A stretch of DNA of 31,536 bases from Fibrobacteria bacterium (GCA_041746255.1 JBGTHM010000108.1:1-31536), one strand, 5' to 3'. Positions 1,371 to 19,258 are shown, counted from the first letter of the stretch. The notes: generated by a model from the sequence alone, not told the origin. Translations and numbers: made by a program.

Positions 1371-3443
1371 ATGCTAGACAAAGGAATTATCGGATTGACG
1401 GGCCTTATGTTTCTGGCTTTAGGGTTGCTGACGCCCTCTCCGGCAACGGCGGAAACCCAAATCCATCCGCTCATCGAAAAGAGCAATTGCCTGGCCTGCC
1501 ATCAGATAAGTGGCAAAGCGATAGGTCCGAACTTTTCCGAAATAGCTTTAAAGTACGGCAAACAAGATTCCCGGAAATTACTGGAAAAAATCCGGGACGG
1601 AGGCAGTGGAACTTGGGGAGCCATCCCCATGCCCCCCCATCCGCAACTTTCCGAATCCGACCTGCAAGCGATGGTCGAATGGATTCTGGCTTTAGGCGAG
1701 AAATCAGCCCCGGCGGTCGCCAAATCCCCCAGGCTGGGAACCAAACCCGGGGAAATGATTGAATACCGGCAATTTCCCATCATTGGAAGCCGGGTGGCGA
1801 TTTGGATCCTGGCCCAGTTGCATCTCATGTTTGCCGCCTTCGTACTCGCCGTCCCCATGTTTGCCTTGATAATCGAATATATCGGCTACCGCACCGGCGA
1901 AAAGCGTTATGACCAACTCGCCCATGAATTCACCAAACTGCTTTCGACTTCCTTTTCCTTTACGGCCGCATTGGGAACCCTGCTCACCTTCATGCTTTAC
2001 TTTCTCTATCCGAAATTGATGACGTATCTGACTTCCATTTTCGGTTGGACTTTCCTGCCCTACGTTCTCCTGTTTTTCGGGGAGGCGGTTTTCCTCTATT
2101 CCTACTACTACGGCTGGGGAAAGTTCAGTCCCCGAATCCACCTCGCTTTGGGAGTAGGCCTCAACCTTACCGGTATCGGAATCCTTTTCATCGCCGACGG
2201 ATGGCTGACCTTCATGAATACTCCCGGCGGGGTGACTGAGACGGGTGAGCTGCTCTCGACCTGGGATGCCGTCAACAATTACACCTGGATGCCCATCAAC
2301 ATCCATCGCCTGATCGCCAACGTGGCTTTCGGCGGCTCCATTGCGGCCGCTTACGGGGCGTATAAATTTCTGGGAGCCAAAACCGACGAAGAGAAGGCCC
2401 ATTACGATTGGATGGGTTATATGGGCAACTTCATCGCAATCGCAGCCCTGCTCCCCCTCTCCTTTGCGGGGTATTGGCTGGGTAAGGAAATCTACGCCTA
2501 CTCCCAGAACATGGGCATGACCTTAATGGGGGGCGCCTTTTCCTGGCTATTCATCATCCAAGGGGTACTCATCGGAGTTCTCTTTCTCGCCGCCAACTAT
2601 TACCTGTGGCTTGGCATGGGCCGCATACAGGGGGCTGAACGATTCCGCGGTTTCATTAAATGGTTGCTGGCCGTGATTACCATTTGCTTTATCGTATGGG
2701 CCACACCGCATTCCCTGATCGCCACCGTGCAGGAGGCGAGAGCCATGGGAGGCTCCCACCATCCCTCGCTGCGGGTTCTTGGAGTGATGTCGGCCAAGAA
2801 CACGGCCGTGAACATTCTCATTCTCACCACTTTCGTCAGCTTCCTGCTCTACCGCAGGGGAAACAAACAGGCTACGGTATCCTGGGCAAGATACGGCAAC
2901 TATGCCCAGTTCGGAATTTTCGCGGGGGTCTCCCTCTTCGTGATTTTTCTGGGAGTTTACGGCTATTTCGTGGAAGCGGCCGTGCGCATCAAGCTCTCCA
3001 TCCCGCAAGTGTTATCGGTACTTTTCGCCATGGTATCCGTTACGATATTGGACATAGCGTTGTTTCACAAGGCGAAGATAACCGGTGAAATCAAATGGGG
3101 AAGCATGCCCAGGAGAGCGCAATACGCCCTGTTTCTCATCGCCATCACTTTCACCTGGATCATGGGGCTCATGGGATACGTGCGCTCGGGAATCCGTCAG
3201 CATTGGCATGTACATGGCATCATGCGCGACACATCGCCCGAGGCCTATACGCCCACCTTGGGATTCGCCGCCAATGTGGTTTCCATCACCGTAATGATGT
3301 TTTTCGCCTTGATTTCCATCGTCTTTTGGCTGGCCAGCCTTACCGGCCGGAAAAATTGGAGCCCGCCTCCCATAAGCGGAATGGCTCCGCCGCCCGGAAT
3401 TTCCTTGCAAGCCATGCCGAGCGATAAGGAGGCTGCGCATTGA
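1371..3443 (+). CDS. Cytochrome c551/c552-like domain fused to a cytochrome bd-like (CydA-like) integral membrane oxidoreductase subunit
   Basis: Signal peptide, then a class I cyt c (CLACH...GPNF..IA.KY...GGSGTWGAIPMPPH), then many TM helices. CydA-equivalent motifs: QLHLMFAAFVLAVP (His19-like), FFGEAVFLYSYYYGW, IHRLIANVAFGG (His186-like), and RSGIRQHW in place of xExGRQPW. No recognisable Q-loop. Confidence 0.85.
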   Translation: MLDKGIIGLTGLMFLALGLLTPSPATAETQIHPLIEKSNCLACHQISGKAIGPNFSEIALKYGKQDSRKLLEKIRDGGSGTWGAIPMPPHPQLSESDLQAMVEWILALGEKSAPAVAKSPRLGTKPGEMIEYRQFPIIGSRVAIWILAQLHLMFAAFVLAVPMFALIIEYIGYRTGEKRYDQLAHEFTKLLSTSFSFTAALGTLLTFMLYFLYPKLMTYLTSIFGWTFLPYVLLFFGEAVFLYSYYYGWGKFSPRIHLALGVGLNLTGIGILFIADGWLTFMNTPGGVTETGELLSTWDAVNNYTWMPINIHRLIANVAFGGSIAAAYGAYKFLGAKTDEEKAHYDWMGYMGNFIAIAALLPLSFAGYWLGKEIYAYSQNMGMTLMGGAFSWLFIIQGVLIGVLFLAANYYLWLGMGRIQGAERFRGFIKWLLAVITICFIVWATPHSLIATVQEARAMGGSHHPSLRVLGVMSAKNTAVNILILTTFVSFLLYRRGNKQATVSWARYGNYAQFGIFAGVSLFVIFLGVYGYFVEAAVRIKLSIPQVLSVLFAMVSVTILDIALFHKAKITGEIKWGSMPRRAQYALFLIAITFTWIMGLMGYVRSGIRQHWHVHGIMRDTSPEAYTPTLGFAANVVSITVMMFFALISIVFWLASLTGRKNWSPPPISGMAPPPGISLQAMPSDKEAAH

Positions 3444-4264
3444 AAAACTTCATGAACATCCTCTTATTCACCTTGTTGGTTACCGCTTTCTATACCTATG
3501 TGGGCCATATGGTACCCCAACAGGAATTCCATCCTCCCCAGGAATTGGAAATACGTCCCGATATGTCCACCGCCGAATTGGTGGAAGTCGGACGCGAGCT
3601 TGCCGCCGGAAAAGGAACTTGCATGGCCTGCCATACCCTCGGCAAAGGCGAGGGCGGGCGTTTTCCCGATCTGGAAAACATAGGAGTGAAAGCCGAGAGC
3701 CGGCGCCCGGACATGAGCTCCCTGGATTATCTGGCGGAATCGCTATACGAACCCGAAGCCTTCATCGTAGAAGGCTTCAACCCGGGCATGCCCGCCGTGC
3801 ATAAAGCCCCAATCAGTTTATCCGATGCCGAAATCATCGCCATTATCGCCTGGATGCAAACGCTGGGAGGAGAGGCAACCGTCGGCCTTTCCGCTACCCA
3901 TAAATACTCCGGGGCGTCAGCTCAATCAGAATCGCCGGTTGCCACCAAAGTTGCAGGAGAAAAATTTCTTGGGGTAGCCGCCGTCGATGGTCCTGGGGTT
4001 TACCAGAAATACGGATGCTCATCCTGTCATAGTATGTCCTCATCCGAAAGCCTGCTGGGTCCCTCTTTGGCGAATATCGGCAACCGTCTCACAACACCCG
4101 AACTCTATCGGGCCCTGCTGGAACCCGATGCCGTGGTAGCGGAGGGATACGCGCCGGGAGTAATGGCGGCCTCCTTGGCAGCCTCGGGATTTTATGAAAA
4201 AGCAACCGCCGGCGAATTACGCGTATTGGTGGAGTTCCTTTCAACCCGGAAAGGTGCACAATGA
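3440..4264 (+). CDS. Membrane-anchored diheme cytochrome c
   Basis: TTG start overlaps the upstream TGA, with an AAGGAGG RBS. N-terminal TM, CMACH and CSSCH motifs, and repeated YLAESLYEP/LYRALLEPDA..GY motifs typical of class I cyt c domains. Confidence 0.9.
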   Translation: MKNFMNILLFTLLVTAFYTYVGHMVPQQEFHPPQELEIRPDMSTAELVEVGRELAAGKGTCMACHTLGKGEGGRFPDLENIGVKAESRRPDMSSLDYLAESLYEPEAFIVEGFNPGMPAVHKAPISLSDAEIIAIIAWMQTLGGEATVGLSATHKYSGASAQSESPVATKVAGEKFLGVAAVDGPGVYQKYGCSSCHSMSSSESLLGPSLANIGNRLTTPELYRALLEPDAVVAEGYAPGVMAASLAASGFYEKATAGELRVLVEFLSTRKGAQ

Positions 4265-5073
4265 ATATCTGGGTTTTATCCGGCGTCATGGTCTTCTTGA
4301 TGGGACTGAGATTTTTCCGTCCGAACATACTCGCCTGGTTGACGGCGATATGGATTTCCTGCTTCATTTTTCTCCGCTATGGAATAGAACCGCCCGCCCC
4401 GGCCTCCATCGTCAAATTTTTCATGGCCATCATCACCGGGTCTTTGGCCCTATATGCAACGGCCGATGCCGGGCGAATGGACGAAGCCCTATCGTTACTC
4501 AAGAAATGGACCACCGAGCCGCGATATCGACGCCTATTGGCAATCGGAATCTTGGTGATTCCAGTTTTTCTGGGTTACGGCGCCTACAGACAAGCATCGC
4601 TCGGAGTCCAACCTCCTTCCTCCGGAAGAACCGTCCATCCGGCTCCTCCCGACGAAATCACTTTCAAGGGGAAGCGCATTGATCTGATAACCGGAGACAA
4701 CCCTTACCGAAAATTGGAGACCACCGATAAGGAAGCGTTCGCGAGCCACCTCGAAAATGGCCGGAAAATCTATTATCAAAACTGTGTCTTTTGTCATGGA
4801 GACAATATGGAGGCCGAAGGAAACTTCGCCCATGGGTTTGATCCGCTTCCGGCGAACTTTCTCCAGGCCACCACCATCGCCATGTTGGAAGAAAGCTACC
4901 TGTTCTGGCGTATCGCCAAAGGAGGCCCCGGGCTACCGGAAGCGGGAACGCCTTGGTTAAGCAGCATGCCGGCCTGGGAGGATCGGCTCAGCGAAGAGGA
5001 TATCTGGGATGTCATTATGTTCCTTTACGAATTCACAGGACATCGGCCCCGTGCCAAGGAGAATGTGAGATGA
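4261..5073 (+). CDS. Membrane protein (about 4 TM) with C-terminal monoheme cytochrome c
   Basis: ATGA overlap, hydrophobic N-half, CVFCH, and WRIAKGGPGLP..SMPAW with a distal Met. Confidence 0.88.
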   Translation: MNIWVLSGVMVFLMGLRFFRPNILAWLTAIWISCFIFLRYGIEPPAPASIVKFFMAIITGSLALYATADAGRMDEALSLLKKWTTEPRYRRLLAIGILVIPVFLGYGAYRQASLGVQPPSSGRTVHPAPPDEITFKGKRIDLITGDNPYRKLETTDKEAFASHLENGRKIYYQNCVFCHGDNMEAEGNFAHGFDPLPANFLQATTIAMLEESYLFWRIAKGGPGLPEAGTPWLSSMPAWEDRLSEEDIWDVIMFLYEFTGHRPRAKENVR

Positions 5074-6650
5074 GCCTGACGCAACGAATTGCAGTGAAAG
5101 GCCGTTGGCGTGGAAACATGATTTTGTCGCTATCCCTTTTAATCGTCATGAAACTATCCGTGGAAAACGCGGGCGCTGCCGATGCGAAACAACTTGAGAG
5201 AGGAAAGGCAATCTACGACGCGAAGTGCAGCCAATGCCACGGTTACGCAGGCGACGCCAAAGCGGTGGGTGCTGAATACAATCACCCCTTACCCCGCGAT
5301 TTCACTTACGGAGTCTATAAGATTCGCACCACCGAAAGCGGCGAACTTCCCACCGACCGGGATTTACGCAATATCATCCGCAAGGGAATGCCCTATACCG
5401 GAATGCCGCCATGGCCACGCTTGACCGATCAGAATCTCGACGACGTGGTGCAATACATCAAAACCTTCGCCGATGATTTTTCCGATTCGGTGATGACTCC
5501 CATCGAAATCGTCATTCCCAAGGCTCCCAAATATTCGGAGGAATCCGCCCGGAAAGGCCTGGAAATTTTTCGCGAAAACAAGTGCATGGATTGTCATGGC
5601 GAATTCGGACGAGGCGACGGAGAGTCCGCCCCCACTTTAACGGACGATTGGAATCAATTCATCCATCCCGCTAATTTGACCAAACCCTGGACCTTCAGGG
5701 GGGGCGCCGAGCGCGAAGACATTTACCGAACCATCGTAACCGGCCTGAATGGAACGCCTATGCCTTCCTTCGCCACCATCGAAGAGGAGGATCGCTGGCA
5801 TCTGGTGAATTATATCCATTCGCTCTCTCCGAACAAAAAGGCTCCCTATACCAACCTGGTACTCGGAGAATTTTCGGACGAGCCTTTGGACTTGGAGCGC
5901 GGGGACGAGCTTTTTAAGAATGCGACGCCATCCCTCTTTCCCGTGGTTGGTCAAGTCATTGAAGATCCCCGCAGTTTTCAACCGGCCGCAAATGCCATTT
6001 CGGTGCAGGCCGTTTACGACAGCACGCATGTCGCCATTCGTCTGTCATGGCACGATATGAGTGCGCAGCGAAAGGGTAGCAATACCCCGGTCACCCAAAC
6101 GGTTCGGAATGATTCGAGCGAACCGAGCGCGGTAATATCCAAAAACCCGTCCCAGGAGGTCTATTCCGATGCCGTAGCCTTGCAAATACCCCACAAGTCG
6201 CCCAGTGGCCGGGCATTGCCCTACTTCCTCTTCGGCGACGGAAAAAACCCCGTCGATATCTGGTTCGCTGACCTCGGAAAAGACTCTCCGCAAGGCTTCA
6301 TCGGCAAGGGAGCGTCCAACCTTACCGCAGCCGAATCAGACCTCCATATGCGAAGCGATTACCGTGACGGGGAATGGTCCGTCATTTTTAAAAGTCCGCG
6401 CCATCCCGAAAAAGGCATGCCTTTCCATCCGGAAGAATTCATCCCCATTGCGTTTTCTATTTGGGACGGATTTTCAGAGGAAACCGGCAATAAGCGAGGC
6501 ATCACTTCCTGGTACAACCTGTACTTGAAATCACCCGTGCAAACCTCCCCTTTCCTTCCGGCGGCGCGAAAGGCAGGCCTAGCCATGGGATTGCAAATCG
6601 TATTGCTTTTCGCGTTACGCCACCATTATCGACGCAAGGGTAACTTGTAA
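5070..6650 (+). CDS. Diheme cytochrome c with ethylbenzene dehydrogenase gamma-like (EB_dh/DOMON-like) domain and C-terminal TM anchor
   Basis: True start is probably ATG 5070 (ATGA overlap, AAGGAG RBS), not 4953. CSQCH and CMDCH. EB_dh-like motifs: VQAVYD..HVAIRLSWHD, SDAVALQIP, VDIWF, YRDGEWSVIFK, IAFSIWDG..ETGNKR. Confidence 0.85.
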   Translation: MSLTQRIAVKGRWRGNMILSLSLLIVMKLSVENAGAADAKQLERGKAIYDAKCSQCHGYAGDAKAVGAEYNHPLPRDFTYGVYKIRTTESGELPTDRDLRNIIRKGMPYTGMPPWPRLTDQNLDDVVQYIKTFADDFSDSVMTPIEIVIPKAPKYSEESARKGLEIFRENKCMDCHGEFGRGDGESAPTLTDDWNQFIHPANLTKPWTFRGGAEREDIYRTIVTGLNGTPMPSFATIEEEDRWHLVNYIHSLSPNKKAPYTNLVLGEFSDEPLDLERGDELFKNATPSLFPVVGQVIEDPRSFQPAANAISVQAVYDSTHVAIRLSWHDMSAQRKGSNTPVTQTVRNDSSEPSAVISKNPSQEVYSDAVALQIPHKSPSGRALPYFLFGDGKNPVDIWFADLGKDSPQGFIGKGASNLTAAESDLHMRSDYRDGEWSVIFKSPRHPEKGMPFHPEEFIPIAFSIWDGFSEETGNKRGITSWYNLYLKSPVQTSPFLPAARKAGLAMGLQIVLLFALRHHYRRKGNL

Positions 6651-6653
6651 ATT

Positions 6654-6669
6654 CGGCAAGGGAATTGCA
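6654..6669 (+). promoter_or_regulatory. Internal sigma-54 (-24/-12) promoter for the downstream half of the cluster
   Basis: CGGCAAGGGAATTGCA: GG-N10-GC with TTGCA, just after the 6650 stop in the only large intergenic gap of the cluster. Confidence 0.65.
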
Positions 6670-6670
6670 T

Positions 6671-6690
6671 AACAGACAATTTTATCCATT
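6671..6690. promoter_or_regulatory. Operator-like box, copy 3, overlapping the predicted transcription start
   Basis: AACAGACAATTTTATCCATT aligns with the boxes at 1056 and 1263. Confidence 0.55.
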
Positions 6691-6820
6691 TATATGCCAA
6701 GGGAGTGCCGGATGACCGCCCAAAAGACCCTCAAAACACCTTTTAGCCGCTGGCATGGGCTTTGATATGGAAAAGGAGGATGCCTTGCCGAAATCGAAGC
6801 ATGAAAAAGGAATACTTTAC

Positions 6821-7729
6821 ATGAAAACGGCGCTATTGGGAATTTTACTTTTTGCCACGGGAACGTTCGCCGGTTCGGAACTTTTACCTTCTTCCGTGAG
6901 GGGCGAAGGGGTATACCAAAGAGCCTGTGCGGCATGCCATGGCGACAACGGAGACGGCCAAGGCCCGGCGGCGAAATTCCTCGATCCCCTTCCACGCGAC
7001 TTTATTGCCGGTCAGTATAAATTCCGCTCCACACCCAGCGGAGAATTGCCGACGGATGCGGATCTGATCCGTATCGTGGAAGACGGTATTCCCCGTACCC
7101 AAATGCCCGGCTGGAAGCGGCTGCTCACACCCCAAGAAATTCATGACGTGGTGGCCTATCTCAAAACCTTCAACGCGGATTTCCAGGAATTCGGAGCCCC
7201 CGAGGCCATCACGGTTCCCACTCCCCCAGCGGCTTCTCCCGCCCTCATCGAAGAAGGCCGCATGGTTTACATGGTCATGGAATGCTGGGCCTGCCATGGT
7301 GGAAGCGGAAAAGGGAACGGCGCTTCCGCCAAGGGCCTTAAGGACGATGCGGGAAATAAAATCCTTCCCTGGAACTTGACGAATTTCCGCTACAAGGCGG
7401 GTAACGATCCCCATACACTTTACCGCACTATTTCCACCGGATTGAACGGAACCCCCATGCCTTCCTTCACGGGCGTATTTCTCTTCGAAGGAGGTCAATT
7501 CGACGCAGCCAAGTATTCCGAGGCCTATGGAGAAGAGGATATTCAATTACTGCGAGCGTATTTCCGTGCCCAACCCTCGTTGACCGCGCTGGAATCCATG
7601 ACCGATGAAGATCGAAAGCACCTGGAAGAAAAACGGAAATGGGCCCTGGTCCATTACGTCGGCTCTTTGCCCAAGAAGCCGAATCTGTTTCACCGGCTAT
7701 TCTGGGCGGACACGGAAGTGACCAAATGA
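6821..7729 (+). CDS. Periplasmic diheme cytochrome c (paralog of the diheme domain of 5070-6650)
   Basis: Probable start MKTALLGILL at 6821 (signal peptide). CAACH and CWACH. Shares PLPRDF..G.YK.R.T.SGELPTD.DL and TGLNGTPMPSF with the upstream protein. Confidence 0.9.
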   Translation: MKTALLGILLFATGTFAGSELLPSSVRGEGVYQRACAACHGDNGDGQGPAAKFLDPLPRDFIAGQYKFRSTPSGELPTDADLIRIVEDGIPRTQMPGWKRLLTPQEIHDVVAYLKTFNADFQEFGAPEAITVPTPPAASPALIEEGRMVYMVMECWACHGGSGKGNGASAKGLKDDAGNKILPWNLTNFRYKAGNDPHTLYRTISTGLNGTPMPSFTGVFLFEGGQFDAAKYSEAYGEEDIQLLRAYFRAQPSLTALESMTDEDRKHLEEKRKWALVHYVGSLPKKPNLFHRLFWADTEVTK

Positions 7730-7752
7730 CCCCTGGAAAGGAGATGAGAGTT

Positions 7753-8277
7753 ATGCAGTCATGGCTATTCCTTCTATCGCTAGGACTTGTCGGCTTGTTG
7801 CTGGCGGCATGCGTAGAACCTGTGGGGAGCGGAACCGGACTAACCGAAAGCGGGAGGCTCGCGGCAGCTCCCACTCCAATCGATACGGCAAACCCCGATC
7901 CGGTCGATCCCGGACCCGTGGATACCAATGCGCTCGCCGCAAACTTTTTCGCCAACCAGGTTCTGCCGATATTCCAGGAGAATTGCACCCAATGCCATTC
8001 GCCGGGATCACAGGGCTATAACTACACCAAATTGACCCTGGAACTCGATAAGGCTTATGCCGCCCTGGTGAACGTTCCTTCCACCGAAATGAAGGCGCCC
8101 CGGCCGGAAATGTTGTTGGTAAAACCCGGAATGCCCGACAGCAGCTTTCTCTACAATAAAATCGCGTTCGACAAACCGCTGGCCTTCGCCCGCATGCCTC
8201 TGCAGAAACCAAAACTTTCCGCTACCGATATCGATATCATAAAGAAATGGATCGAGGGTGGATCCCCGGAAAATTGA
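7753..8277 (+). CDS. Monoheme cytochrome c lipoprotein (planctomycete-cytochrome-c-like domain)
   Basis: AAGGAG RBS 9 nt before ATG 7753 (alternative start 7726). Lipobox LAAC and Pro-rich linker, then F..QVLPIFQENCTQCH...LVKPG.PDSS.L..KI...MP...LS..DI..I.KWI..G. Confidence 0.82.
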   Translation: MQSWLFLLSLGLVGLLLAACVEPVGSGTGLTESGRLAAAPTPIDTANPDPVDPGPVDTNALAANFFANQVLPIFQENCTQCHSPGSQGYNYTKLTLELDKAYAALVNVPSTEMKAPRPEMLLVKPGMPDSSFLYNKIAFDKPLAFARMPLQKPKLSATDIDIIKKWIEGGSPEN

Positions 8278-8298
8278 AGTGAAGAAGGAGTTATTGTG

Positions 8299-9384
8299 AT
8301 GCGCATGTATAAATCCACCATCAGCCTGACTTTCGGGATAATTGGAGCCTGCTTGTTCGCGGCAGCGCCGAGGATATACGCCGAGCCTTATATCGCCGTC
8401 CGTTCGGGAATGAAGTGCAGCGTATGCCACGTCAACAAATCCGGCGGGGGAATGCGCACCGATTACGGGTCCGTATACTCCCAATACCAATTGCTCCTGG
8501 CCACGGCGGGAGGGAAAAAGTTGCCGTTTTCCTTCGATCCCAAATTGAACAAATCCATAACCGTAGGCGCCAATTGGCGCGTGGAACAGGTACGCATATC
8601 CCAATACACCAACGACAGCGGGAAGGTATTTCCCTCTGCCGATGAATCCACCATCCGCGAAGGAAACCTGTACCTCAACCTGGAATTGGTCAAAAATTTC
8701 CTTTCCCTTTATATCGACCAGACCATGGCTCCATCTTCGACTAATCGCGAATTTTTCGCCACCGTCGAAGGACCCCATAACACCTTCTTCAAATTCGGAC
8801 GCATGCTGCTTCCTTATGGATTGAGACTGATGGATGACGAAGCATTCATCCGCAATACAACCAACTACACCTACAATCGACATGATTTGGGATATGAAGT
8901 AGGATGGGAGCCCGGCCCCGTTTCGGCCATCGTCAACGTCACCAATACCCAACTCTCGTCGGTGGGTTCGGTAAACTTCCGCCGGGTACGGGTTGGCGGA
9001 TCCTACGGCTCGGCCATCCAGAAGCTGGAGCGGGATAAAAAGAACACCTACGGGATATTCGGGGGAGCCAATGCCGGAATGTTCACCTTTTTGCTGGAGC
9101 GGAACTGGACTAAAAACGTCGATATTAAAAGCGTATCGACGCTGGCGGAAGTAAATGTATTACCGATACGCGGCCTCAACTTCAAGACCACCTATGAATA
9201 CCTGCATCCCGATACCATGATACCCCGGGATCAGAACGGGCAGCAGCGCTATACCTTCGGAGCGGAGCCGTTTTTGACCCAGTGGTTTCAAATCGGATTG
9301 TACTACCGTAAAAACGACTGGATTCCCCAAAACGGTCCCAAGAACCAGGATCAAATCATCGGCAGGCTGCACACTTTCTTTTAG
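8299..9384 (+). CDS. Monoheme cytochrome c-outer membrane beta-barrel (porin) fusion, Cyc2-like architecture
   Basis: Signal peptide, then AEPYIAVRSGMKCSVCH directly after the cleavage site, then alternating beta-strand-like segments (FKFGRMLLPYG, LGYEVGW, YTFGAEPF) ending in an aromatic beta-signal (RLHTFF). Confidence 0.75.
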   Translation: MRMYKSTISLTFGIIGACLFAAAPRIYAEPYIAVRSGMKCSVCHVNKSGGGMRTDYGSVYSQYQLLLATAGGKKLPFSFDPKLNKSITVGANWRVEQVRISQYTNDSGKVFPSADESTIREGNLYLNLELVKNFLSLYIDQTMAPSSTNREFFATVEGPHNTFFKFGRMLLPYGLRLMDDEAFIRNTTNYTYNRHDLGYEVGWEPGPVSAIVNVTNTQLSSVGSVNFRRVRVGGSYGSAIQKLERDKKNTYGIFGGANAGMFTFLLERNWTKNVDIKSVSTLAEVNVLPIRGLNFKTTYEYLHPDTMIPRDQNGQQRYTFGAEPFLTQWFQIGLYYRKNDWIPQNGPKNQDQIIGRLHTFF

Positions 9385-9429
9385 CCTATCGCCAAAAAGT
9401 CCATCATAAACATCACCGGAGGAAATACC

Positions 9430-10122
9430 ATGACATGCATACGAAAAACCAGCTTACTGCTCCTCGCCGGAGCCTGCGCCCTATGGGCGGGAGGCAGCAT
9501 CACCGGAACCGTCAAGGTGAAAGGCGACATCCCCAAGGATGAAACCCGCATCGTCACCAAGAATGCCGAGCAATGCGGAGCCAAAATGAACGCGCAAAAG
9601 TATGTCATTTCCGCTTCCGGCGGCGTGAAATGGGCGGTCGCCATGCTGGAAGAAGCCCCCAAAGGTGGAAAGGCTTGGGGCCAAGTCGACCTGGTCTACA
9701 ACAACAAAGAGTGCCGATTCGAGCCGCATGTTCTCATTGCGCCCACCGGAGGTACCTTGAAGGTTTCCAATAGCGACGACATGTTGCATAACGCCAATTT
9801 TTCCCAGGTCGAGGGAGACAAGAAAAAGGGAATCGTCAATCTCGCCCTGCCGCGCAAGGGATTGGTGCTTGAGAACAATCGGATACTTCGGAGGGCCGGA
9901 CTTATTTCCGTCGAATGCGACGCGCATGACTTCATGCAGGGCTGGATCTGGTCGCTTCCCCATCCTTACGCTTCGGTCACCGACAGCAACGGCGGTTTCA
10001 AAATCGATGACGTGCCGCCCGGATCGTATAAATTGAAAGTCTGGCACGAAGGACTGGGTGAAAAAATCGTAGAGGTCAAAGTCGAGGACGGCCAGGACTC
10101 CAAGGTAAACGTCGAGCTTTGA
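9430..10122 (+). CDS. Secreted cupredoxin-like / carboxypeptidase-regulatory-like domain protein
   Basis: GGAGG RBS and signal peptide. Motifs GSITGTV, CRFEPHV, NSDDMLHN, CDAHDFM (His...Cys-x2-His-x2-Met, type-1-Cu-like) and FKIDDVPPGSYKLKVWHE. Confidence 0.75.
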   Translation: MTCIRKTSLLLLAGACALWAGGSITGTVKVKGDIPKDETRIVTKNAEQCGAKMNAQKYVISASGGVKWAVAMLEEAPKGGKAWGQVDLVYNNKECRFEPHVLIAPTGGTLKVSNSDDMLHNANFSQVEGDKKKGIVNLALPRKGLVLENNRILRRAGLISVECDAHDFMQGWIWSLPHPYASVTDSNGGFKIDDVPPGSYKLKVWHEGLGEKIVEVKVEDGQDSKVNVEL

Positions 10123-10155
10123 AACCCGTACGGATTGGTCGCAAAGGGAATGACG

Positions 10156-11421
10156 ATGCTTACGCCGCAAGAGAAATTCACCCCCTATCTTGTGGCCGTC
10201 AACCTCACCGCCAGCTGCAATCTGGCGTGCGCGCATTGCTATATGGACGCGGACCAGCGTGGCAAACCCGCTTCCGACGAACTGGATAACGCGGAACTGG
10301 CGGGGCTTTTCCAGGAAATCGCCGAACGGGCGCCCGGCACCATTATCGTGCTCACCGGCGGCGAACCCTTGCTCCGCCCCGATCTTCCACTCATCGTCGC
10401 ATCCGGGGCGAAGGCGGGATTGCGCATGGTATTGGGAACCAATGGTTTATTGCTTACGCCCGAAAAGATTTCGCTTTTAAAAACCGCCGGACTTCAGGGA
10501 GTGGGCGTAAGCCTGGACGCCGTGGAGCCATCCGCCCATGATGAATTCCGCGGAGTACCCGGCGCATTCGCGCGGGCGCGCCAAGGAATCAAAAATTGCC
10601 GCGCACAGGACTTGCATGTGCAAATCCATTTCACCTTGACCCGCAAACAATTGGGACGCGAACAGGACGTGGTCAGCATGGCCAGGGAACTTGGAGCATC
10701 CATCGTCAATTTCTTTTTCCTGGTATGCGTCGGACGCGGTCAATCCGCAATGGACCTCACCCCGGAGGAATACGAAAACGCCCTGATCCGTATCGCGCGC
10801 TTGCAAAGGGATTCCCGCGAGATTCTGGTGCAGTCGCGTTGCACCCCGCATTTCAAGCGCATTCTTTACGAAACCGATCCGCAATCCGAATTCACCCGTG
10901 CCACCGGCTATGATGGCGGAGGCTGCCCAGCCGCAACCCATTATTGCCGCATCACCCCCAAAGGCGATATGACCCCCTGCCCTTACCTCGAGCTATCGGG
11001 AGGCAATATAAAGGAAAAAGGGTTCTGGAAAATCTGGGACGAGGCCAGGCTGTTCCAATCTTTTCGCGATCCATCCCTGTTGCAAGGGCGGTGCGGAAGT
11101 TGCGAGTACAAATTGATATGCGGAGGGTGCCGCGCCCGATCGCTGGCCGAAACCGGCAATTTGATGGGAGAGGATCCGAGTTGTTCCTACCAGCCGGTCG
11201 GAGGCGAAACGATTCCTGCGCGCTTGGAAAACGGACCGGAGCAAGTGGTTTGGACGCAAGCGGCGCGGGAGCGCCTGATAAAGGTTCCCCTTTTCTTGCG
11301 ACCCATGATCCGGAAAAAACTGGAAGAAAGAGCGCTACGCGAAGGCGTGGAAGTCACCCCGGAATTGATGCAGAAACACCGCTCCGAAAGACAAGCCCAA
11401 TTGGGCATGCGTTTCGGATAG
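10156..11421 (+). CDS. Radical SAM/SPASM protein, NirJ/AhbC/AhbD-like, with C-terminal PCP_red domain
   Basis: CNLACAHCY (CxxxCxxC), GGEPLLRPD, CTPHFKRI, SPASM cysteines GCPAA..YCRI...PCPY...CGSCEYKLICGGCRAR...DPSC, and C-terminal WTQAARERLIKVPLFLRPMIRKKLE. Start chosen from RBS spacing. Confidence 0.88.
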   Translation: MLTPQEKFTPYLVAVNLTASCNLACAHCYMDADQRGKPASDELDNAELAGLFQEIAERAPGTIIVLTGGEPLLRPDLPLIVASGAKAGLRMVLGTNGLLLTPEKISLLKTAGLQGVGVSLDAVEPSAHDEFRGVPGAFARARQGIKNCRAQDLHVQIHFTLTRKQLGREQDVVSMARELGASIVNFFFLVCVGRGQSAMDLTPEEYENALIRIARLQRDSREILVQSRCTPHFKRILYETDPQSEFTRATGYDGGGCPAATHYCRITPKGDMTPCPYLELSGGNIKEKGFWKIWDEARLFQSFRDPSLLQGRCGSCEYKLICGGCRARSLAETGNLMGEDPSCSYQPVGGETIPARLENGPEQVVWTQAARERLIKVPLFLRPMIRKKLEERALREGVEVTPELMQKHRSERQAQLGMRFG

Positions 11422-11440
11422 CAACGTCAGGAGAAGATCC

Positions 11441-14400
11441 ATGCAAATCGCCACCGCCGAAAAAATACCGCCTCTACCCGCGAACGTCATTGTAGGCGAG
11501 AATTCCGTGGACGTGAATTTGACTTCCGGTCTCAAGCGCCTGCCGCTGATTCCCTTGCCCGATCGCATGGTGGATTGGATGGAAGAGGGCCGCCGGTCGA
11601 TGTACGACAAGCTCCAAAACAAAGGCAAGCCGGCGTTCTTCTCCTCGCATCTGCCCGTCATGGTAACGTGGTCGGGAGACAAGGACATTCCTTTCAATTG
11701 CTCGAACAAGGGCGTCGGGCTCATCCCCAAGGAAAAATACCTGAAGCATTATATCCAGGTTTTCCGTTCGGTGCTGGAAAAAACCAAAGGCCGCCCTTGG
11801 CAAGAATCCATGGCGGAAAGAATCAAAGCGGTGTCGAGTTTTTATTTCAAACGCGAAGCCATCGATCTGCGCGCCTTGACCACTTTGGAAATTTTCCAGA
11901 AAACCACCTACCGAAATCTCATGTCCAATCCCATCGCGTCCTTGCATTACACGGGCAATGCACCCGATTACATGAGCTTTCAGGTCAATTGCGCGGTAGA
12001 GATAATCGGACCCGATGACCCCCGCCACACCTTTATCAAATTGGCCCGGGTGATGTTCGAATACGACAGTTTCCATATCGCCCAACCGGAATTTCCGCAC
12101 GCCTACATACTTTGGATCACCGAAGTGGGAGACAAGACTCCCTTTCGCGTAGAACAAAAGCCGGAGAACGTCGTCCATGTGAAGGGACGCGGCGATTTGG
12201 AATGGGACCCCGAAGCCATGCAATCGGTAAACCGCGCCCCCGGAATGATCCGGCAATTCATCACCGAGTCCATCGAAAAATACGCCCTTTCGCGCGGCTT
12301 CACGCGCATCGACGCCAAAGTGGTGCGCGAAGCCCGGGAAGTGATGGAACGCAATACGACTGCCGACGGCGAGGATAAACCCGCGTCCCAGCCCGAACAG
12401 CCCGTCGATTTGACCCGGTATCAGAGCATTTACGTGGGGCTCGATTCTTCGGAGCTTTCCACCGCCGCCACCGAATTGGCCGTGCGCATGGGAAAGACCT
12501 ACGGGTCCACCCTGCACGGTAGCCACGTATACGCCGCCAAAATGCATGACAACCGATTCCGTGCCATGGAAGGAGGCCTGCCTGCTGAATATCAACAAGA
12601 GAAGGAGCTGGAAAAACAACGTAAAATCCATGACAGCCTCATCACCAAAGGTTTGGAGCTCATCACCGACTCCTATCTCGAGGTCATGGCGCGCGAATGC
12701 GCGAAACATCAGGTAACCTATACCCCGGTTTCACTCGAAGGGAAGAATTGGCAGGCTCTCTCCAAAGATATCGCTTCGCACGCTCACGACCTCATAGTCT
12801 TCGGCGGTTTCGGCATCGGCCGTGTCAGCCGATCCCTGCTCGGCTCGGTGACGGAGAGAACCCTGCGACGTGTGCGGCGCGATTTCCTTATTTGCAAGCG
12901 CACGGAGATGGAGAATCAATCGGATACCATCGTGGTCTGCCTCGACGGCAGCGAGAGAAGTTGGGGCGGGTTGCAACGAGCCTTCAGCCTGGCCGAAAAA
13001 TTCGATAAACGTATCGTAGCGGTTTCCGCCTTCGATCCCTATTTCCATTATGCCATGTTCAAGAGCCTCAATACGGCGCTGACGGACAAGGCCCGCAAGG
13101 TTTTCAAATTCGAGGAGCAGGAAAAGCTCCACGAAGACATCATCGATTCGGGATTGGCGAAAATCTATCAGTCCTATTTGAATATCGCGGAAAGACTAGC
13201 CGAAAAAGCCGGGGTTTCCATCGATACCAAATTGCTGGACGGCAAACCCTTTGAAAAAATCCTGCAATATTGCGAAGAAAATCCGCCCTGGCTCGTGGTA
13301 CTCGGACGCATCGGCTTCCACAGCGAAGAAGACATGGATTTGGGCAGCAATACGGAAAACCTGTGCCGCATGTCCCCCTTCAATTTGCTGATAGTGGAAA
13401 GTAAAAGCAAACCCCCGGTGGAATTCCAGGCCGAAGAGACGGTGAGTTGGACGGTGGAAGCCAAGGAGCGCATGCATAAGGTTCCCGATATGGCGCGCCC
13501 CATGGCAATGAAGGCCATCCAAGGATATTGCATTGCCGAAGGCCATACCGTCATCACCGAATCCATTCTTTTCGAAGCGTTGCGATCCATCATGCCTCCC
13601 GAGGCGCTGGCCCGCATGGGAATCGATCTCGAAGCCAAACGCGAAGCCGAAGCGGAGGTTGTCGATCGAATCGAACTGTCTTTCCGCTGTCCCGTATGCG
13701 GATTCCATCATCAAGGTTCCCGGCCCGTCTCCTGCCCCGTATGCGGCCGTGAAGGAGCGGTGTTCCAACTGCTGGAAAAATCGGAAGTGAAGGACGGCGA
13801 AGCCCAAAACACGCTGGGCAACCGCAAACTGATATGGGAACGCGAAGCCTTGGAAAAGATCGAGGCGATACCCGATCCGGTTTGGCGCGAACAATTACGC
13901 AACCGGGTAGAGAAACGGGCCTTGACTGACAAAGCCGCCGGCGTCACGGTGGAAATGGTTCAAGCCGCGCAGGAAGTCCAATCCTTCGCCGCGCCGGTTT
14001 CGAGTGGCGGACACCAGAACCCCACCCTGCCGACAAACGTTCCATCCTCGGCCGCGGCGAAGCCGCTTTGGACCGAAGCCGGATTGGAACGTCTCGAACG
14101 CATACCCGAGGGCTTTATGCGGCATGCGGCCAAGACCACGGTGGAAAAATTCGCGGTTGAAAAAGGCCATCTGCAAATCAGCCTGGAAGTGGCGGAAGCC
14201 GGACTGGGAAAGGCCCGGGAAATGATGCGGGATGCCATGGCCGGCCGTATCGCACATCCAGGGGCCGAAGTACCGGAAGCCACAGGAACGGTAGCTTGGG
14301 AATGCCATGTATGCGGATTCACTGCCGATGGAAGCAAACCGAGTGAATGTGGCAATTGCGCCACCGGTCATTTCATGCCGGTGACTTCGGAGAAACACGC

Positions 14401-14788
14401 GAAGCTGCCACTCTCGGTCTTCCAAAAACTGGATTGGGATACTGATTCGCTACAACGTCTGGAACGGGTCCCCGAAGGTTTCATGCGCGACATGACCCGC
14501 TGGCGCGTTGAGAAGTGGACGCGCGCGGACGGTCGGAATAAAGTGGATTTCGCCGCTATGGCCGATAAATTCGAAAATTGGGCCGAAGGCAGCGCAAAAC
14601 ACAAGACGACGCTGCCTTGGAGCCAGGAAGCCGAAGCCAGGGCGAACCGTATCCCCGGTTTCATTCGAGCGATAGTAATGAAAGAAGTGGAGAAAAGGGC
14701 TCAATTTCTGGGAAAAACCACAATCGATGAAAGTGGTTTCGACGAGGCCGTAAAGCATTGGTCCGCTACCGGATCCTTTCACGGTTAA
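11441..14788 (+). CDS. Multidomain protein: split-barrel (PNPOx-like) N-domain, 2 universal stress protein domains, 2 rubredoxin-like Cys4 domains, 6 PCP_red repeats
   Basis: USP motifs IYVGLDSSE..S...LLGSVTERTLR and IVVCLDGSERS...LGSNTENL. Cys4 motifs CPVCG..CPVCG and CHVCG..CGNC. Six W..EA..R...(V/I)P..(F/M)R-type repeats. N-domain contains TTLEIF..TTYRNL..NP.ASL.YT....SFQVNC.VEI. Confidence 0.85.
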   Translation: MQIATAEKIPPLPANVIVGENSVDVNLTSGLKRLPLIPLPDRMVDWMEEGRRSMYDKLQNKGKPAFFSSHLPVMVTWSGDKDIPFNCSNKGVGLIPKEKYLKHYIQVFRSVLEKTKGRPWQESMAERIKAVSSFYFKREAIDLRALTTLEIFQKTTYRNLMSNPIASLHYTGNAPDYMSFQVNCAVEIIGPDDPRHTFIKLARVMFEYDSFHIAQPEFPHAYILWITEVGDKTPFRVEQKPENVVHVKGRGDLEWDPEAMQSVNRAPGMIRQFITESIEKYALSRGFTRIDAKVVREAREVMERNTTADGEDKPASQPEQPVDLTRYQSIYVGLDSSELSTAATELAVRMGKTYGSTLHGSHVYAAKMHDNRFRAMEGGLPAEYQQEKELEKQRKIHDSLITKGLELITDSYLEVMARECAKHQVTYTPVSLEGKNWQALSKDIASHAHDLIVFGGFGIGRVSRSLLGSVTERTLRRVRRDFLICKRTEMENQSDTIVVCLDGSERSWGGLQRAFSLAEKFDKRIVAVSAFDPYFHYAMFKSLNTALTDKARKVFKFEEQEKLHEDIIDSGLAKIYQSYLNIAERLAEKAGVSIDTKLLDGKPFEKILQYCEENPPWLVVLGRIGFHSEEDMDLGSNTENLCRMSPFNLLIVESKSKPPVEFQAEETVSWTVEAKERMHKVPDMARPMAMKAIQGYCIAEGHTVITESILFEALRSIMPPEALARMGIDLEAKREAEAEVVDRIELSFRCPVCGFHHQGSRPVSCPVCGREGAVFQLLEKSEVKDGEAQNTLGNRKLIWEREALEKIEAIPDPVWREQLRNRVEKRALTDKAAGVTVEMVQAAQEVQSFAAPVSSGGHQNPTLPTNVPSSAAAKPLWTEAGLERLERIPEGFMRHAAKTTVEKFAVEKGHLQISLEVAEAGLGKAREMMRDAMAGRIAHPGAEVPEATGTVAWECHVCGFTADGSKPSECGNCATGHFMPVTSEKHAKLPLSVFQKLDWDTDSLQRLERVPEGFMRDMTRWRVEKWTRADGRNKVDFAAMADKFENWAEGSAKHKTTLPWSQEAEARANRIPGFIRAIVMKEVEKRAQFLGKTTIDESGFDEAVKHWSATGSFHG

Positions 14789-14848
14789 ATCCGCTGAATC
14801 CGCCGAATCCGCTTTTGGACTCGGGAATTTGTATTTATCTGTATCTCA

Positions 14849-15871
14849 ATGCGACCCGAATCCCGATTCCCAATCCGCGGTTTTTTCCGCCAGGCATTTG
14901 CCCAAACTCACCGGCTCGTATTCGCCTTATGCGTTTGCGCTATTCTGATTCCTAAGCCATGCCGAGCTGCTTCCACCGCGGCCGCGCACCAAGTGCCTTT
15001 TACGGTAGAGTATCGGAACGAGGCGAGCAAGTACCGGATCAACAGCGTATTTTTAATGCCCGGCGAAGAGCTCACCCTTAGAGTCCATGCGGATTCACCC
15101 TTACAAAGTTTCCGCATTGATTTTCCGGACGGACAGGCGCCGCAAAATAGCCGCAACTCCGCGACTTACACCGCTCCACTTGTACCAGGAGCTTATCAAG
15201 CCATGGTACACGAGGAAACGGCGGGCGATACGGCGCTTTTCAATATCTTCGTGATGGTTCCGAGAACCGTCAAAGAGGGCGAATTCCTGAAAGGTTATCG
15301 TATCGGCCATTATCCGGCCAAGCCCCTGAAAAACCTGGATATTTACAAGCAGCCACCTGGGTTCATCCAAGTGACCGAGGAATTGCATAACCTCAAGGTC
15401 TCGCCCCGATTTACCCTGGGACAATTCTTGTGCAAGCAGAATTCCGACTTTCCGAAATTCCTGCTGTTACAAGAACGCTTGCTGCTTAAACTCGAGGCCA
15501 TCATCGATAAACTGAACGAAGAAGGCCATCCCGTCACCACCTTGCATGTCATGAGCGCGTATCGCACCCCCCATTATAACAAGGCCATTGGAAACGTCGA
15601 GTACAGCATGCATCAATGGGGAGGCGCCGCGGATATCTTCGTGGATGAATCCGCGAACGGAAAAATGGACGACCTCAATAAAGATGGAATAATCGATGGA
15701 AAGGATTCCGACATTCTCATCGATATCGTGGAGCAAGTCGTCAACCATACGAATTATCTCGGAGGCATCGGCAAATACAAGGCGAACCATGCGCATGGCC
15801 CCTTCGTGCATGTCGACGTGCGTGGCTCCCGGGCTACCTGGGGATTTACGCCGATTACTTCCCTGCCCTAA
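14849..15871 (+). CDS. Peptidase M15A-family (D-Ala-D-Ala carboxypeptidase-like) secreted protein
   Basis: SAYRTPHYN, SMHQWGGAADI and FVHVDVRG Zn-ligand motifs, plus a signal peptide and a DxNxDG loop. Confidence 0.85.
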   Translation: MRPESRFPIRGFFRQAFAQTHRLVFALCVCAILIPKPCRAASTAAAHQVPFTVEYRNEASKYRINSVFLMPGEELTLRVHADSPLQSFRIDFPDGQAPQNSRNSATYTAPLVPGAYQAMVHEETAGDTALFNIFVMVPRTVKEGEFLKGYRIGHYPAKPLKNLDIYKQPPGFIQVTEELHNLKVSPRFTLGQFLCKQNSDFPKFLLLQERLLLKLEAIIDKLNEEGHPVTTLHVMSAYRTPHYNKAIGNVEYSMHQWGGAADIFVDESANGKMDDLNKDGIIDGKDSDILIDIVEQVVNHTNYLGGIGKYKANHAHGPFVHVDVRGSRATWGFTPITSLP

Positions 15872-17789: not shown

Positions 17790-19253
17790 GTGAACAACCA
17801 GGGAATCGCAAAAATCCTGCTGGACCACAGCCTCGCCACCCGTGAGCAATTGGAATCCCTGTGGCCCCAATTGAACGGACATGCGAATATCGCCGAACTG
17901 ATGGTGGGCGAAGGGTTGCTCGAACCGCAGGTCTATCGGCAATTGCTCGAGTATATCGCGAAGTTGGATGGGAAAAGTCCGGAAAAGCCTGTTGCGGAAA
18001 CCGTAAACAAAGCGCCAGTCCCTTCACCTCCGGACCAACCACCCACCCCGAGCGCCGGACAGCCGAACCCGGTTTCCAAACCAAAAGTTAAAGCCAAAAC
18101 CGCCCAGCCGGGAGAATTGCTTCCCATCGAGTTCCGCGGGCGCGCCGGTTTGGAACCCAGCGCAGCCACGGTCCCCGACAAGGTGGGCCCGGAAAGCACC
18201 TGGGAGGAAATCCTTCGCTTCGGCCGCGGCTGTGGCGCCACCGATCTCCACCTGTCTTCGCAAAGACCGTTGCTACTACGTTATCACGGCGGACTCCACC
18301 CCGCCGCTGAGGGAATTTTCCCGGTCGAGGCCGTGGAAACGCTGCTGGCCTCGGCGCTCACCCGGGAAGAACTCGCCCTCTTCAACGACAAGGGAGATTT
18401 TGAGTTCGTGTATACCCTGGAGGGCGCGGGCCGCTTTCGGGTTACCGCCATGCGGCATGCCAAGGGCCTGGACATAACGGTGCGCATCATTCCCATGCAT
18501 ATCCGCAGCTTCGAGGAATCCGGGCTTCCCGAAGGCTGCCGGGATCTCACCCGCTGGTCGCAAGGTCTCGTGCTGGTTACGGGTCCCGCCGGCTGCGGGA
18601 AAACCAGCACCTTGGCCACGCTGGTGGAAATGGTCAATCAATCCCGCCAGGACCATATCATTACGGTGGAAAAGCCGGTGGAAATCGTCTATACGCCCGC
18701 ACAATGCCAAATCACCCAGCGCGAACTCGGGCTGCACTCCCTTTCCCGCGACAACGCCTTGCGCGCCGCCCTGCGTCAGGACCCGGACATCATCGTCATC
18801 AGCGAGTTACGTGATCTCCAGGGTATTTCCATGGCCGTTTCTGCGGCGGAAACCGGCCATCTGGTTTTCGCCACCATGAATACCACCAACGCCTCGCGTA
18901 CCATCTACCGGCTCATCGATTCCTTTCCCGCGGACGAGCAGGCCATCGTCCGCAATATGATTTCCGAAAGCTTGCGCGGAGTCATATCCCAACAATTGCT
19001 TCCGCTCCTCGACGGTTCGGGCGTGGTTCCGGCTTACGAAGTATTGCTGGTCACTTCCGCGGTCGCCAACCTCATCCGCAAGGATGAGACCCATCAATTG
19101 GGCTCGGCCATGATGACCGGAAAGGGTTCCGGTATGGTCCTTCTCGACGATTCGCTGCGCCGCTTGGTGGAGACGGGCTTGGTCGCACCCGAAGAGGCAT
19201 ATAAACGCGCCAACAGCCCCAAGGATTTTGAACGTTACCTGAAAAAGGCCTGA
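17790..19253 (+). CDS. PilT/PilU-family type IV pilus ATPase with N-terminal extension
   Basis: ATDLHLS, GRFRV, LVLVTGPAGCGKTSTLA, LRAALRQDPD, ETGHLVFAT and AVANLIRK. Helical N-terminal extension plus a Pro-rich linker. Confidence 0.9.
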   Translation: MNNQGIAKILLDHSLATREQLESLWPQLNGHANIAELMVGEGLLEPQVYRQLLEYIAKLDGKSPEKPVAETVNKAPVPSPPDQPPTPSAGQPNPVSKPKVKAKTAQPGELLPIEFRGRAGLEPSAATVPDKVGPESTWEEILRFGRGCGATDLHLSSQRPLLLRYHGGLHPAAEGIFPVEAVETLLASALTREELALFNDKGDFEFVYTLEGAGRFRVTAMRHAKGLDITVRIIPMHIRSFEESGLPEGCRDLTRWSQGLVLVTGPAGCGKTSTLATLVEMVNQSRQDHIITVEKPVEIVYTPAQCQITQRELGLHSLSRDNALRAALRQDPDIIVISELRDLQGISMAVSAAETGHLVFATMNTTNASRTIYRLIDSFPADEQAIVRNMISESLRGVISQQLLPLLDGSGVVPAYEVLLVTSAVANLIRKDETHQLGSAMMTGKGSGMVLLDDSLRRLVETGLVAPEEAYKRANSPKDFERYLKKA

Positions 19254-19258
19254 GAACC

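Follow-up and report, generated by a model that had tools for sequence, protein, structure and literature searches.

PCP_red-bearing tandem universal stress proteins and their radical SAM partners as a conserved module that tracks OR-N-type bd-like oxidases

Cytochrome complexes of the OR-N or bd-like type have been proposed as the terminal oxidases of Nitrospira, in nitrite oxidation and comammox, and of Manganitrophus, and in the accessible portions of these reports they appear as poorly characterised, with a role inferred from genomic and expression data (PMC6606698, 10.1101/2021.11.15.468770, 10.1101/2021.01.16.426971). The Nitrospira bd-like oxidase has been assigned to a bd-like/alt-NxrC cluster (PMC6606698), TO_1 of Manganitrophaceae to an operon with c-type cytochromes and an EB_dh haem-b protein (10.1101/2021.11.15.468770), and the family name OR-N is that of Murali et al. 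(10.1101/2021.01.16.426971). The subject here is a 31,536-nt stretch of DNA from a Fibrobacteria bacterium (GCA_041746255.1, JBGTHM010000108.1:1-31536), referred to as a whole as the window, in which a gene cluster of this type is followed by genes for a radical S-adenosylmethionine (SAM) enzyme and for a 1115-amino-acid (aa) protein that joins a tandem universal stress protein (USP) core to six PCP_red repeats. Radical SAM enzymes go without mention in the accessible text of all three oxidase papers, and "universal stress" and "stress protein" have no occurrences in that of two of them; in the available part of PMC5095920, Nitrospira figures only as a chlorite dismutase template. No description of the gene module was found by full-text literature searches, a coverage outside which lie the OR-N supplementary tables, a possible source of operon neighbours.

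The individual parts of this pair also have described counterparts. In BchB of dark-operative protochlorophyllide reductase (DPOR), PCP_red covers the pigment site of the opposite half like a lid, a role that the DPOR papers examined did not state. The domain (PF08369) occupies the C-terminus of BchB/ChlB (PDB 2xdq chain B). Tandem USPs with two USP domains per chain include Rv2623 of M. tuberculosis (PDB 3cis/2jax), TTHA0350 of T. thermophilus with bound ATP (3ab8) and UspE. The closest named families of the radical SAM enzyme are AhbD, NirJ2, NirJ and AhbC of the tetrapyrrole clade.

Pairing of the USP and radical SAM genes and their link to OR-N oxidases

The two genes belong to a conserved module that comprises a tandem USP of presumed nucleotide type, a PCP_red-tailed AhbD/NirJ-like radical SAM enzyme and variable extras (PCP_red arrays, Cys4 knuckles, a split barrel and a CopD-like protein), and that tracks OR-N oxidases. 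Its domain content, gene pairing, linkage to OR-N oxidases, paralogy with AhbD and fusion history are directly established. A word-indexed search returned 1012 proteins related to the 1115-aa protein at E ≤ 0.001, so that the architecture, called unusual in the first-pass annotation, proves to be widespread. A pattern scan limited to one genome per species yielded at least 564 relatives of the USP protein in 600 stretches, and 80 loci were kept. A radical SAM homologue adjoins the USP gene in 75 of them (tblastn); four of the misses (L008, L015, L023 and L046) end at contig edges, and L077 is the one true exception, which leaves little room for an occurrence of the USP protein independent of its partner. 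The radical SAM gene precedes the USP gene in L001-L010 and follows it in the Nitrospirota loci. Because gene order differs between lineages, the adjacency is maintained and not merely inherited.

Public sources label the whole family "universal stress protein", and both this label and the tandem USP fold would suit a generic stress-response protein whose neighbourhood is meaningless. Such an account, already disfavoured, is highly improbable in view of the radical SAM adjacency across phyla, the PCP_red domains common to the USP protein and the enzyme, the split-barrel fusions described below and a mean column identity of 66% in the USP core (36 sequences).

The genes upstream of the pair (Table 1) form a run on the same strand, and by sequence similarity the product of the first is the putative subunit I of an OR-N-type bd-like oxidase, corresponding to the Nitrospira bd-like protein and to TO_1 of Manganitrophaceae. 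This CydA-like protein is 48-50% identical to several bd-like paralogues in Nitrospirales and Manganitrophus genomes. The operon of the window resembles the TO_1 and bd-like clusters in its c-type cytochromes and its periplasmic EB_dh haem-b protein: five further open reading frames (ORFs) carry CxxCH motifs, four of them with above-threshold cytochrome c matches and one also with an EB_dh haem-b match. Unlike OR-N/TO_1 of Nitrospirota, subunit I of the window has a cytochrome c domain fused to its N-terminus, and the genome that holds the cluster is Fibrobacteria-related. The upstream gene order is repeated in L002-L007 and in the Nitrospirota loci L108 and L109, and the CarboxypepD_reg-like gene recurs in oxidase clusters of other phyla, with two copies in L108 (Nitrospirota) and one in L110. 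The genome of L001 is labelled as belonging to an order unrelated to Fibrobacteria; its locus has the same gene order as the cluster of the window at 67-86% protein identity, the oxidase gene, located at another place in that genome, shows 94% identity, and the bin label is probably wrong.

Co-occurrence of the USP core with strong OR-N matches was counted in three phylum samples. Among 151 genomes of the window phylum, four hold both the USP core and the oxidase (above 860 bits), on the same contigs, none holds only one of the two and 147 hold neither; eight other genomes show only weak CydA-like matches. The 151 Nitrospirota genomes comprise 46 with both genes, two with the USP core only (G156 and G172, fragmentary matches), one with the oxidase only (G180) and 102 with neither. 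In the phylum to which G005 belongs (121 genomes), both genes are present in six, 3-8 kb apart, the USP core only in one, the oxidase only in none and neither in 114. The genomes with either gene that hold both therefore amount to 4/4, 46/49 and 6/7, and seven of ten further USP-positive genomes hold the oxidase. A stronger argument than these counts is the adjacency that recurs in differently arranged operons of several phyla. Outside Nitrospirales, the USP and radical SAM genes often share one operon with the oxidase; in L108 it runs through bd-like, cytochrome, USP, CsgG-like and radical SAM genes, in L109 it is similar and in L110 divergent.

The radical SAM partner and its relation to haem synthesis

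The partner enzyme matches Radical_SAM (80.2 bits) and SPASM (33.7 bits) in Pfam, which places it in that superfamily, and the cysteines C28/C32/C35 and C264/C282/C320/C323/C329/C332/C350 are invariant in 36 radical SAM sequences. Five of its seven best NCBIfam models are AhbD (296 bits), NirJ2 (278 bits), NirJ1, AhbC and NirJ; the other two, TIGR04053 and pseudo_SAM_Halo, have no function name. The likeness to AhbD, NirJ2, NirJ and AhbC, which are among its best family matches, extends over the full length and includes the CX3CX2C motif and the seven SPASM cysteines. Compared with one true AhbD, to which it is 35% identical, the enzyme of the window has an extra C-terminal PCP_red domain (37.3 bits), the seventh repeat that the first-pass annotation had read at the end of this upstream gene.

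Identity with the haem b synthase AhbD itself is ruled out, the score being 296 bits against a cut-off of 500 bits for TIGR04545. Applied to the 151 Nitrospirota genomes, the AhbD model separates tiers at 516-534 bits (29 genomes), at about 393-458 bits and at 285-344 bits, the last being the PCP_red-tailed type, which stands beside the USP gene in most genomes. G188, G282, G236 and G156 hold an above-cut-off AhbD (522-531 bits) together with a PCP_red-type gene adjoining the USP gene, and G241, G261, G289 and G301 hold a second-tier AhbD-like gene (433-445 bits) plus the PCP_red type. Two first-tier AhbD ORFs that were inspected end about five residues past the model and have no PCP_red tail. 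Since several genomes also hold a true AhbD, the radical SAM enzyme is, judged by sequence, a paralogue of AhbD.

The genome of the window encodes HemF, HemJ and one ferrochelatase, with no ChdC and no HemN_C match. HemF, HemJ and ferrochelatase make up a complete O2-dependent route to haem b without the radical SAM gene, which rules out the latter as the organism's sole haem b route. A hemB gene (porphobilinogen synthase, ALAD, E 4.8e-141) is located at 23077-24078, 8 kb downstream of the module with unrelated genes between.

The closeness to AhbD nevertheless invites the view that the pair serves a general O2-independent late route to haem b, with the enzyme as coprohaem decarboxylase or coproporphyrinogen dehydrogenase and the USP/PCP_red protein as its regulator or haem chaperone; the OR-N link would then reflect only a shared microaerobic lifestyle. 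The best-matching model is indeed that of a haem b synthase, and an anaerobic bypass would be useful to the organism of the window, whose HemF is O2-dependent and whose genome gives no HemN_C match. Three Nitrospirales and Manganitrophus genomes tested gave no HemF match and weak HemN_C matches (26.5-34.9 bits), the only AhbD-like match of G001 is the radical SAM enzyme of the pair, and in L112 the pair lies between isc and cobalamin genes. Against this stand the shortfall from the AhbD cut-off, the presence beside it, in at least eight Nitrospirota genomes, of a true or near-true AhbD, the operonic association with the oxidase in four phyla (by genome labels) and a distribution that is patchy within phyla and exactly in step with the oxidase. 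A general haem b function is possible, though on the doubtful side.

The full seven-cysteine SPASM domain opens another alternative, namely that the enzyme is a protein maturase which modifies an oxidase subunit, for instance by cross-linking, with PCP_red acting in substrate recognition or docking like leader-binding domains. Among solved structures, SkfB and PqqE are closest to it in sequence, and the operon is shared with many secreted cytochromes. Peptide maturase models, however, reach only 126-150 bits against 165-296 bits for the tetrapyrrole clade, the oxidase subunits are membrane-bound or periplasmic and the enzyme cytoplasmic, the annotated Nitrospirales operons contain no candidate substrate gene, and the Pfam description names a tetrapyrrole enzyme as the one known context of PCP_red. 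Protein maturation is accordingly an unlikely function.

Domain composition and fusion history of the 1115-aa protein

The gene of the 1115-aa protein begins 20 nt after the radical SAM stop codon, with an AGGAGA Shine-Dalgarno-like motif 7-12 nt 5' of the ATG at 11441; a promoter and terminator scan gave scores no better than those of shuffled sequences. The order of domains is a split barrel, one PCP_red repeat, a tandem USP of putative ATP type and a series of five further PCP_red repeats with two Cys4 knuckles set between them. The mosaic proposed in the first-pass annotation (split barrel, two USP domains, two knuckles and six PCP_red repeats) is thereby confirmed by Pfam, by the in-frame positions and by an AlphaFold2 fold, and so is its cytoplasmic location, as neither a transmembrane segment nor a signal peptide is predicted. 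An antisense ORF of 411 codons at 11474-12709 (- strand) lies inside the gene and is presumably a shadow frame.

PCP_red is assigned by a Pfam match to PF08369 at E 7.5e-46 (154.4 bits summed over six stretches), and the six repeat starts read earlier from the DNA all fall in frame (Table 1), which answers the concern that the repeats might not match this family. Scored singly, four of the six exceed the gathering cut-off of 32.5 bits and the other two reach 30.9 and 29.5 bits. A scan of the whole genome (4.59 Mb, 130 contigs, completeness 100) with PF08369 gave seven matches, five of them above 32.5 bits singly: six in the 1115-aa ORF, one at the radical SAM C-terminus and no others. An alignment of all seven shows one W, one P and one R to be invariant; identity to the first repeat is 22-36%. 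The likeness to DPOR is a direct phmmer match to ChlB residues 442-504. In contrast to BchB/ChlB, the 1115-aa protein has no nitrogenase-like Oxidored_nitro domain detected by Pfam, and PCP_red is present sixfold and is common to a radical SAM enzyme. Identity with BchB/ChlB is rejected, since the match to the NCBIfam BchB models is confined to the final ~55-60 model positions and scores 87-90 bits, where the cut-offs are 490-509; the organism has no BchB, because its genome holds no PCP_red match beyond the seven. In a Manganitrophaceae locus (L045:14270-15256), a 328-aa protein 3' of the radical SAM gene consists of four PCP_red repeats alone.

The tandem USP core is defined by a Pfam match to Usp (PF00582) at E 5.5e-32 (111.7 bits, two stretches). 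Both domains carry G-x2-G-x9-G-S, invariant across 13 aligned homologues; G-x2-G-x9-G-[ST] is the ATP motif of USPs of the UspFG/MJ0577 type. The structural model of the core (predicted local distance difference test, pLDDT, 90.0) contains two helices of 34-36 residues, and its top Foldseek matches are Rv2623 (E 3.8e-17), TTHA0350 with ATP, and UspE. By modelled fold and motif, it is a putative ATP-type tandem USP. The fold matches to known tandem USPs range from E 3.8e-17 to 1.7e-15, with a template modelling score of up to 0.83 on target length (TTHA0350), at 14-20% sequence identity. The differences are the 34-36-residue helix of each domain, rich in invariant His, Asp and Glu, the fusion to PCP_red, knuckles and split barrel, and the tie to a radical SAM neighbour.

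Across the family, this core is the conserved part, usually accompanied by PCP_red (three to six repeats in the forms scanned, none in some), whereas knuckles and split barrel are optional. In a 13-sequence alignment the invariant columns cluster in the USP core, PCP_red 2 and PCP_red 4. Query coverage of at least 96% is reached by 26 of the 120 listed relatives, the named ones among them being proteins of Fibrobacteria metagenome-assembled genomes; shorter relatives of ~770-900 aa (Nitrospirota, Manganitrophaceae, SAR324) cover the last 71%, and others, of 697 aa (Nitrospirales), cover 54%.

Both Cys4 sites, putative rubredoxin-like knuckles, have the form CxxC-x11-CxxC, and RUBY_RBDX (PF21349) matches in two stretches with 27.5 bits, just above its cut-off of 26.5. 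In the same alignment, knuckle 1 is missing from P0057, P0096 and P0115 and knuckle 2 from P0096, P0101 and P0115. The gammaproteobacterial forms are without knuckles and the aligned Nitrospira-type 697-aa form has one, so that by comparison of homologues the knuckles are dispensable.

Residues 1-252 have no match in Pfam or NCBIfam, and when the N-terminal domain was run as a profile against PDB sequences, the only matches were at E 0.11-0.18 (2htd, 1rfe). A protein atlas lead pointed to the "PNPOx family" (0.87). PNPOx_N (PF01243, cut-off 28.1 bits) does not match the domain, and four of 16 relatives score 19.9-27.4 bits, all below the cut-off, which leaves it outside that family. AlphaFold2 with a 44-sequence alignment gave a confident model (pLDDT 91.8, predicted template modelling score 0.87), for which Foldseek returned 20 PDB matches at E ≤ 0.001, those listed being split-barrel/PNPOx-like proteins, among them Rv1155 with F420 (4qvb, E 1.5e-4). 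In VIA-align over 48,161 chains, all 50 best rows are named as PNPOx-like or as flavin-, F420- or haem-binding split-barrel proteins; the best is HupZ (Z 12.3, rmsd, root-mean-square deviation, 1.9 A over 119 residues), and YviC with FMN has Z 11.5. For HupZ (7kpz), HutZ (3tgv), ChuZ (3swj) and YviC-FMN (7eg5) the range is Z 9.4-12.3 over 117-128 residues. The haem binders HupZ, HutZ, ChuZ, MSMEG_6519 and KtzT thus appear alongside flavin and F420 binders. On the modelled structure the split-barrel fold, claimed from the outset, is settled, and the fold matches do not fix the ligand. The domain shares 9-13% sequence identity with HupZ, HutZ, ChuZ, YviC and Rv1155, and differs from them by a two-helix insertion of 38 residues and a beta extension of 37 residues at the N-terminus.

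A phmmer search of 1.84 billion representatives with this domain found 162 relatives at E ≤ 0.001, mostly stand-alone proteins of ~235 aa. The split barrel is present in nine of the 80 loci (L001-L007, L009 and L010). In L005 (G004) and L006, barrel and PCP_red form a separate gene of 317 and 328 codons, respectively, and the USP gene is then separate; in G005 and in the window, the barrel is fused to the USP protein. Elsewhere it is C-terminal to USP-USP-PCP_red (P0136, P0154), placed after three PCP_red repeats (P0153) or N-terminal to USP-USP (P0138, P0139). Strong split-barrel matches were found in four genomes of the Nitrospirota sample (G301, G241, G261 and G289), in each directly 3' of the USP and radical SAM genes; three Nitrospirales and Manganitrophus genomes searched gave no match. 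These arrangements show that the protein of the window fuses two genes which stand apart in SAR324-type loci, and that the split barrel is an optional extra gene. As Rosetta-stone fusions, they count for a common module with the USP protein and the radical SAM enzyme. In L112 (Nitrospirota, 6485-15323), a trio of USP, radical SAM and split-barrel genes stands between Fe-S assembly genes, for Rrf2, TusA, cysteine desulfurase and IscU, and cobalamin genes, for CobS, a histidine phosphatase and CobQ.

Another variable extra is a CopD-like membrane protein of 147-175 aa, encoded 3' of the radical SAM gene in 61 of the 80 loci (e.g., L018:13472-13999, L045:15311-15775, L077:5745-6188). Its family matches (CopD, DUF4149, UPF0093/HemJ) are all below threshold, and its gene is present in L077, which lacks the radical SAM gene. 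The split barrel and the CopD-like protein never occur together in the loci examined and may be alternatives to each other. A 175-aa ORF after the Nitrospirales radical SAM gene was considered as a counterpart of the N-terminal domain and rejected; it has no similarity to it and is the CopD-like membrane protein.

Table 1. Coordinates of the module and of the upstream oxidase genes, counted from the first nucleotide of the window
Feature	Position	Strand	Remarks
USP/PCP_red protein	11441..14788	+	open reading frame, 1115 aa
Split-barrel (PNPOx-like) domain	11441..12160	+	aa 1-240, two-helix insertion aa 98-135; AlphaFold2 and fold match
PCP_red repeat 1	12197..12340	+	aa 253-300, 38.9 bits singly
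USP domain 1	12413..12907	+	aa 325-489; G455-x2-G458-x9-G468-S469; 36-residue helix
USP domain 2	12920..13402	+	aa 494-654; G622-x2-G625-x9-G635-S636
PCP_red repeat 2	13442..13579	+	aa 668-713, 34.6 bits singly
Cys4 knuckle 1	13688..13744	+	C750, C753, C765, C768; RUBY_RBDX best stretch aa 748-775
PCP_red repeat 3	13829..13969	+	aa 797-843, 29.5 bits singly, below cut-off
PCP_red repeat 4	14063..14197	+	aa 875-919, 42.2 bits singly; most invariant columns across phyla
Cys4 knuckle 2	14303..14359	+	C955, C958, C970, C973; RCKP-type rubredoxin-like 24.7 bits, below cut-off 45
PCP_red repeat 5	14429..14560	+	aa 997-1040, 30.9 bits singly, below cut-off
PCP_red repeat 6	14612..14749	+	aa 1058-1103, 35.6 bits singly
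Radical SAM/SPASM enzyme, AhbD/NirJ2-like clade	10135..11421	+	CX3CX2C, seven SPASM Cys, C-terminal PCP_red aa 373-414
Upstream gene run	1371..10122	+	same strand, short gaps or overlaps
Cytochrome c-fused CydA-like subunit I (OR-N-type bd-like, by sequence)	1371-3443	+	Cyt_bd_oxida_I 91.4 bits, model positions 2-243
Cytochrome c/EB_dh periplasmic haem-b protein	4953-6650	+	Pfam
Secreted protein, 362 aa, one CxxCH	8296-9384	+	no Pfam/NCBIfam match; homologues in L001, L002 only
CarboxypepD_reg-like protein, 230 aa, hydrophobic N-terminus	9430-10122	+	Pfam

Elsewhere in the window, two adjacent secretion/pilus ATPases of the T2SSE family (487 and 350 aa) are encoded at 17790-20311 and a GyrB/ParE-like and GyrA/ParC-like gene pair at 24947-28916. 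The G+C content drops to 0.441 at 29001-30000; the other 1-kb bins have 0.51-0.61, except for 1001-2000 (0.490).

A proposed role in haem hand-off to OR-N oxidases

As a natural fusion of helpers that travel with a haem-synthase-like radical SAM enzyme and a bd-like oxidase, the 1115-aa protein probably belongs to a cofactor-maturation module for this oxidase that has so far gone undescribed. There is about an even chance that it is the scaffold and regulatory subunit of a module that works in the cytoplasm and serves OR-N oxidases by processing haem or handing it over. The physical binding of the parts, the ligands of the domains, the reaction catalysed and the oxidase as client are all proposals, set out in what follows. 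The adjacent AhbD/NirJ2-like radical SAM protein would be the enzyme of the module and would act on an iron tetrapyrrole, either a haem precursor or haem, with the 1115-aa protein being non-catalytic. The small helical PCP_red domains on the enzyme, the USP protein and the split-barrel protein may be a shared means of docking or of capping a tetrapyrrole, by which the parts are kept together and the product is relayed. The tandem USP core would bind an adenine nucleotide and gate or stabilise the assembly, and the split barrel might bind either a flavin that reduces the cluster of the radical SAM enzyme or the haem that this enzyme produces. The genes upstream would encode the client, a cytochrome complex of the OR-N (bd-like, TO_1) type. 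It is tempting to go one step further and to suppose that the module makes or installs an OR-N-specific cofactor, a haem derivative so far undescribed that would come from a new branch of the AhbD/NirJ clade and move along a PCP_red relay gated by nucleotide on the USP; this version is doubtful and is put forward tentatively.

Several observations weigh against a hand-off module dedicated to OR-N oxidases. Nitrospirales contribute most of the 80 loci, and there the pair does not lie beside the oxidase: in L018 it follows divergent metK/ahcY genes (with homologues in 26 loci and 23 loci, respectively) and precedes a CopD-like gene, and in G001 the oxidase genes are elsewhere on the chromosome. 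The link to the bd-like genes drawn in the first-pass annotation holds by operon and by co-occurrence in the three phylum samples, with the qualification that in Nitrospirales, the bulk of the family, the pair is far from the oxidase genes. Three of the ten further USP-positive genomes (G306, G309 and G311, 1.8-3.6 Mb) have no OR-N match. The co-occurrence is clade-structured, kin are not independent and the window-phylum sample amounts to one event. USP-only forms of ~380 aa without PCP_red exist in L108 and L112, so that the pairing does not require the USP protein to carry repeats. The split-barrel fold matches flavin and F420 binders as well as haem binders, and the binding of a tetrapyrrole or of a partner by PCP_red is a supposition from sequence.

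A cytoplasmic radical SAM module that tracks OR-N oxidases across phyla provides a concrete handle on these oxidases. It also gives a first functional context to a family spread over hundreds of species and labelled only "universal stress protein", as well as to PCP_red outside chlorophyll synthesis, and the window contributes the fused form that ties the split-barrel protein into the module. If an OR-N-specific cofactor were indeed made, a third kind of terminal oxidase would have a dedicated maturation pathway of its own, which would rank with the synthesis of haem a/o for the haem-copper oxidases.

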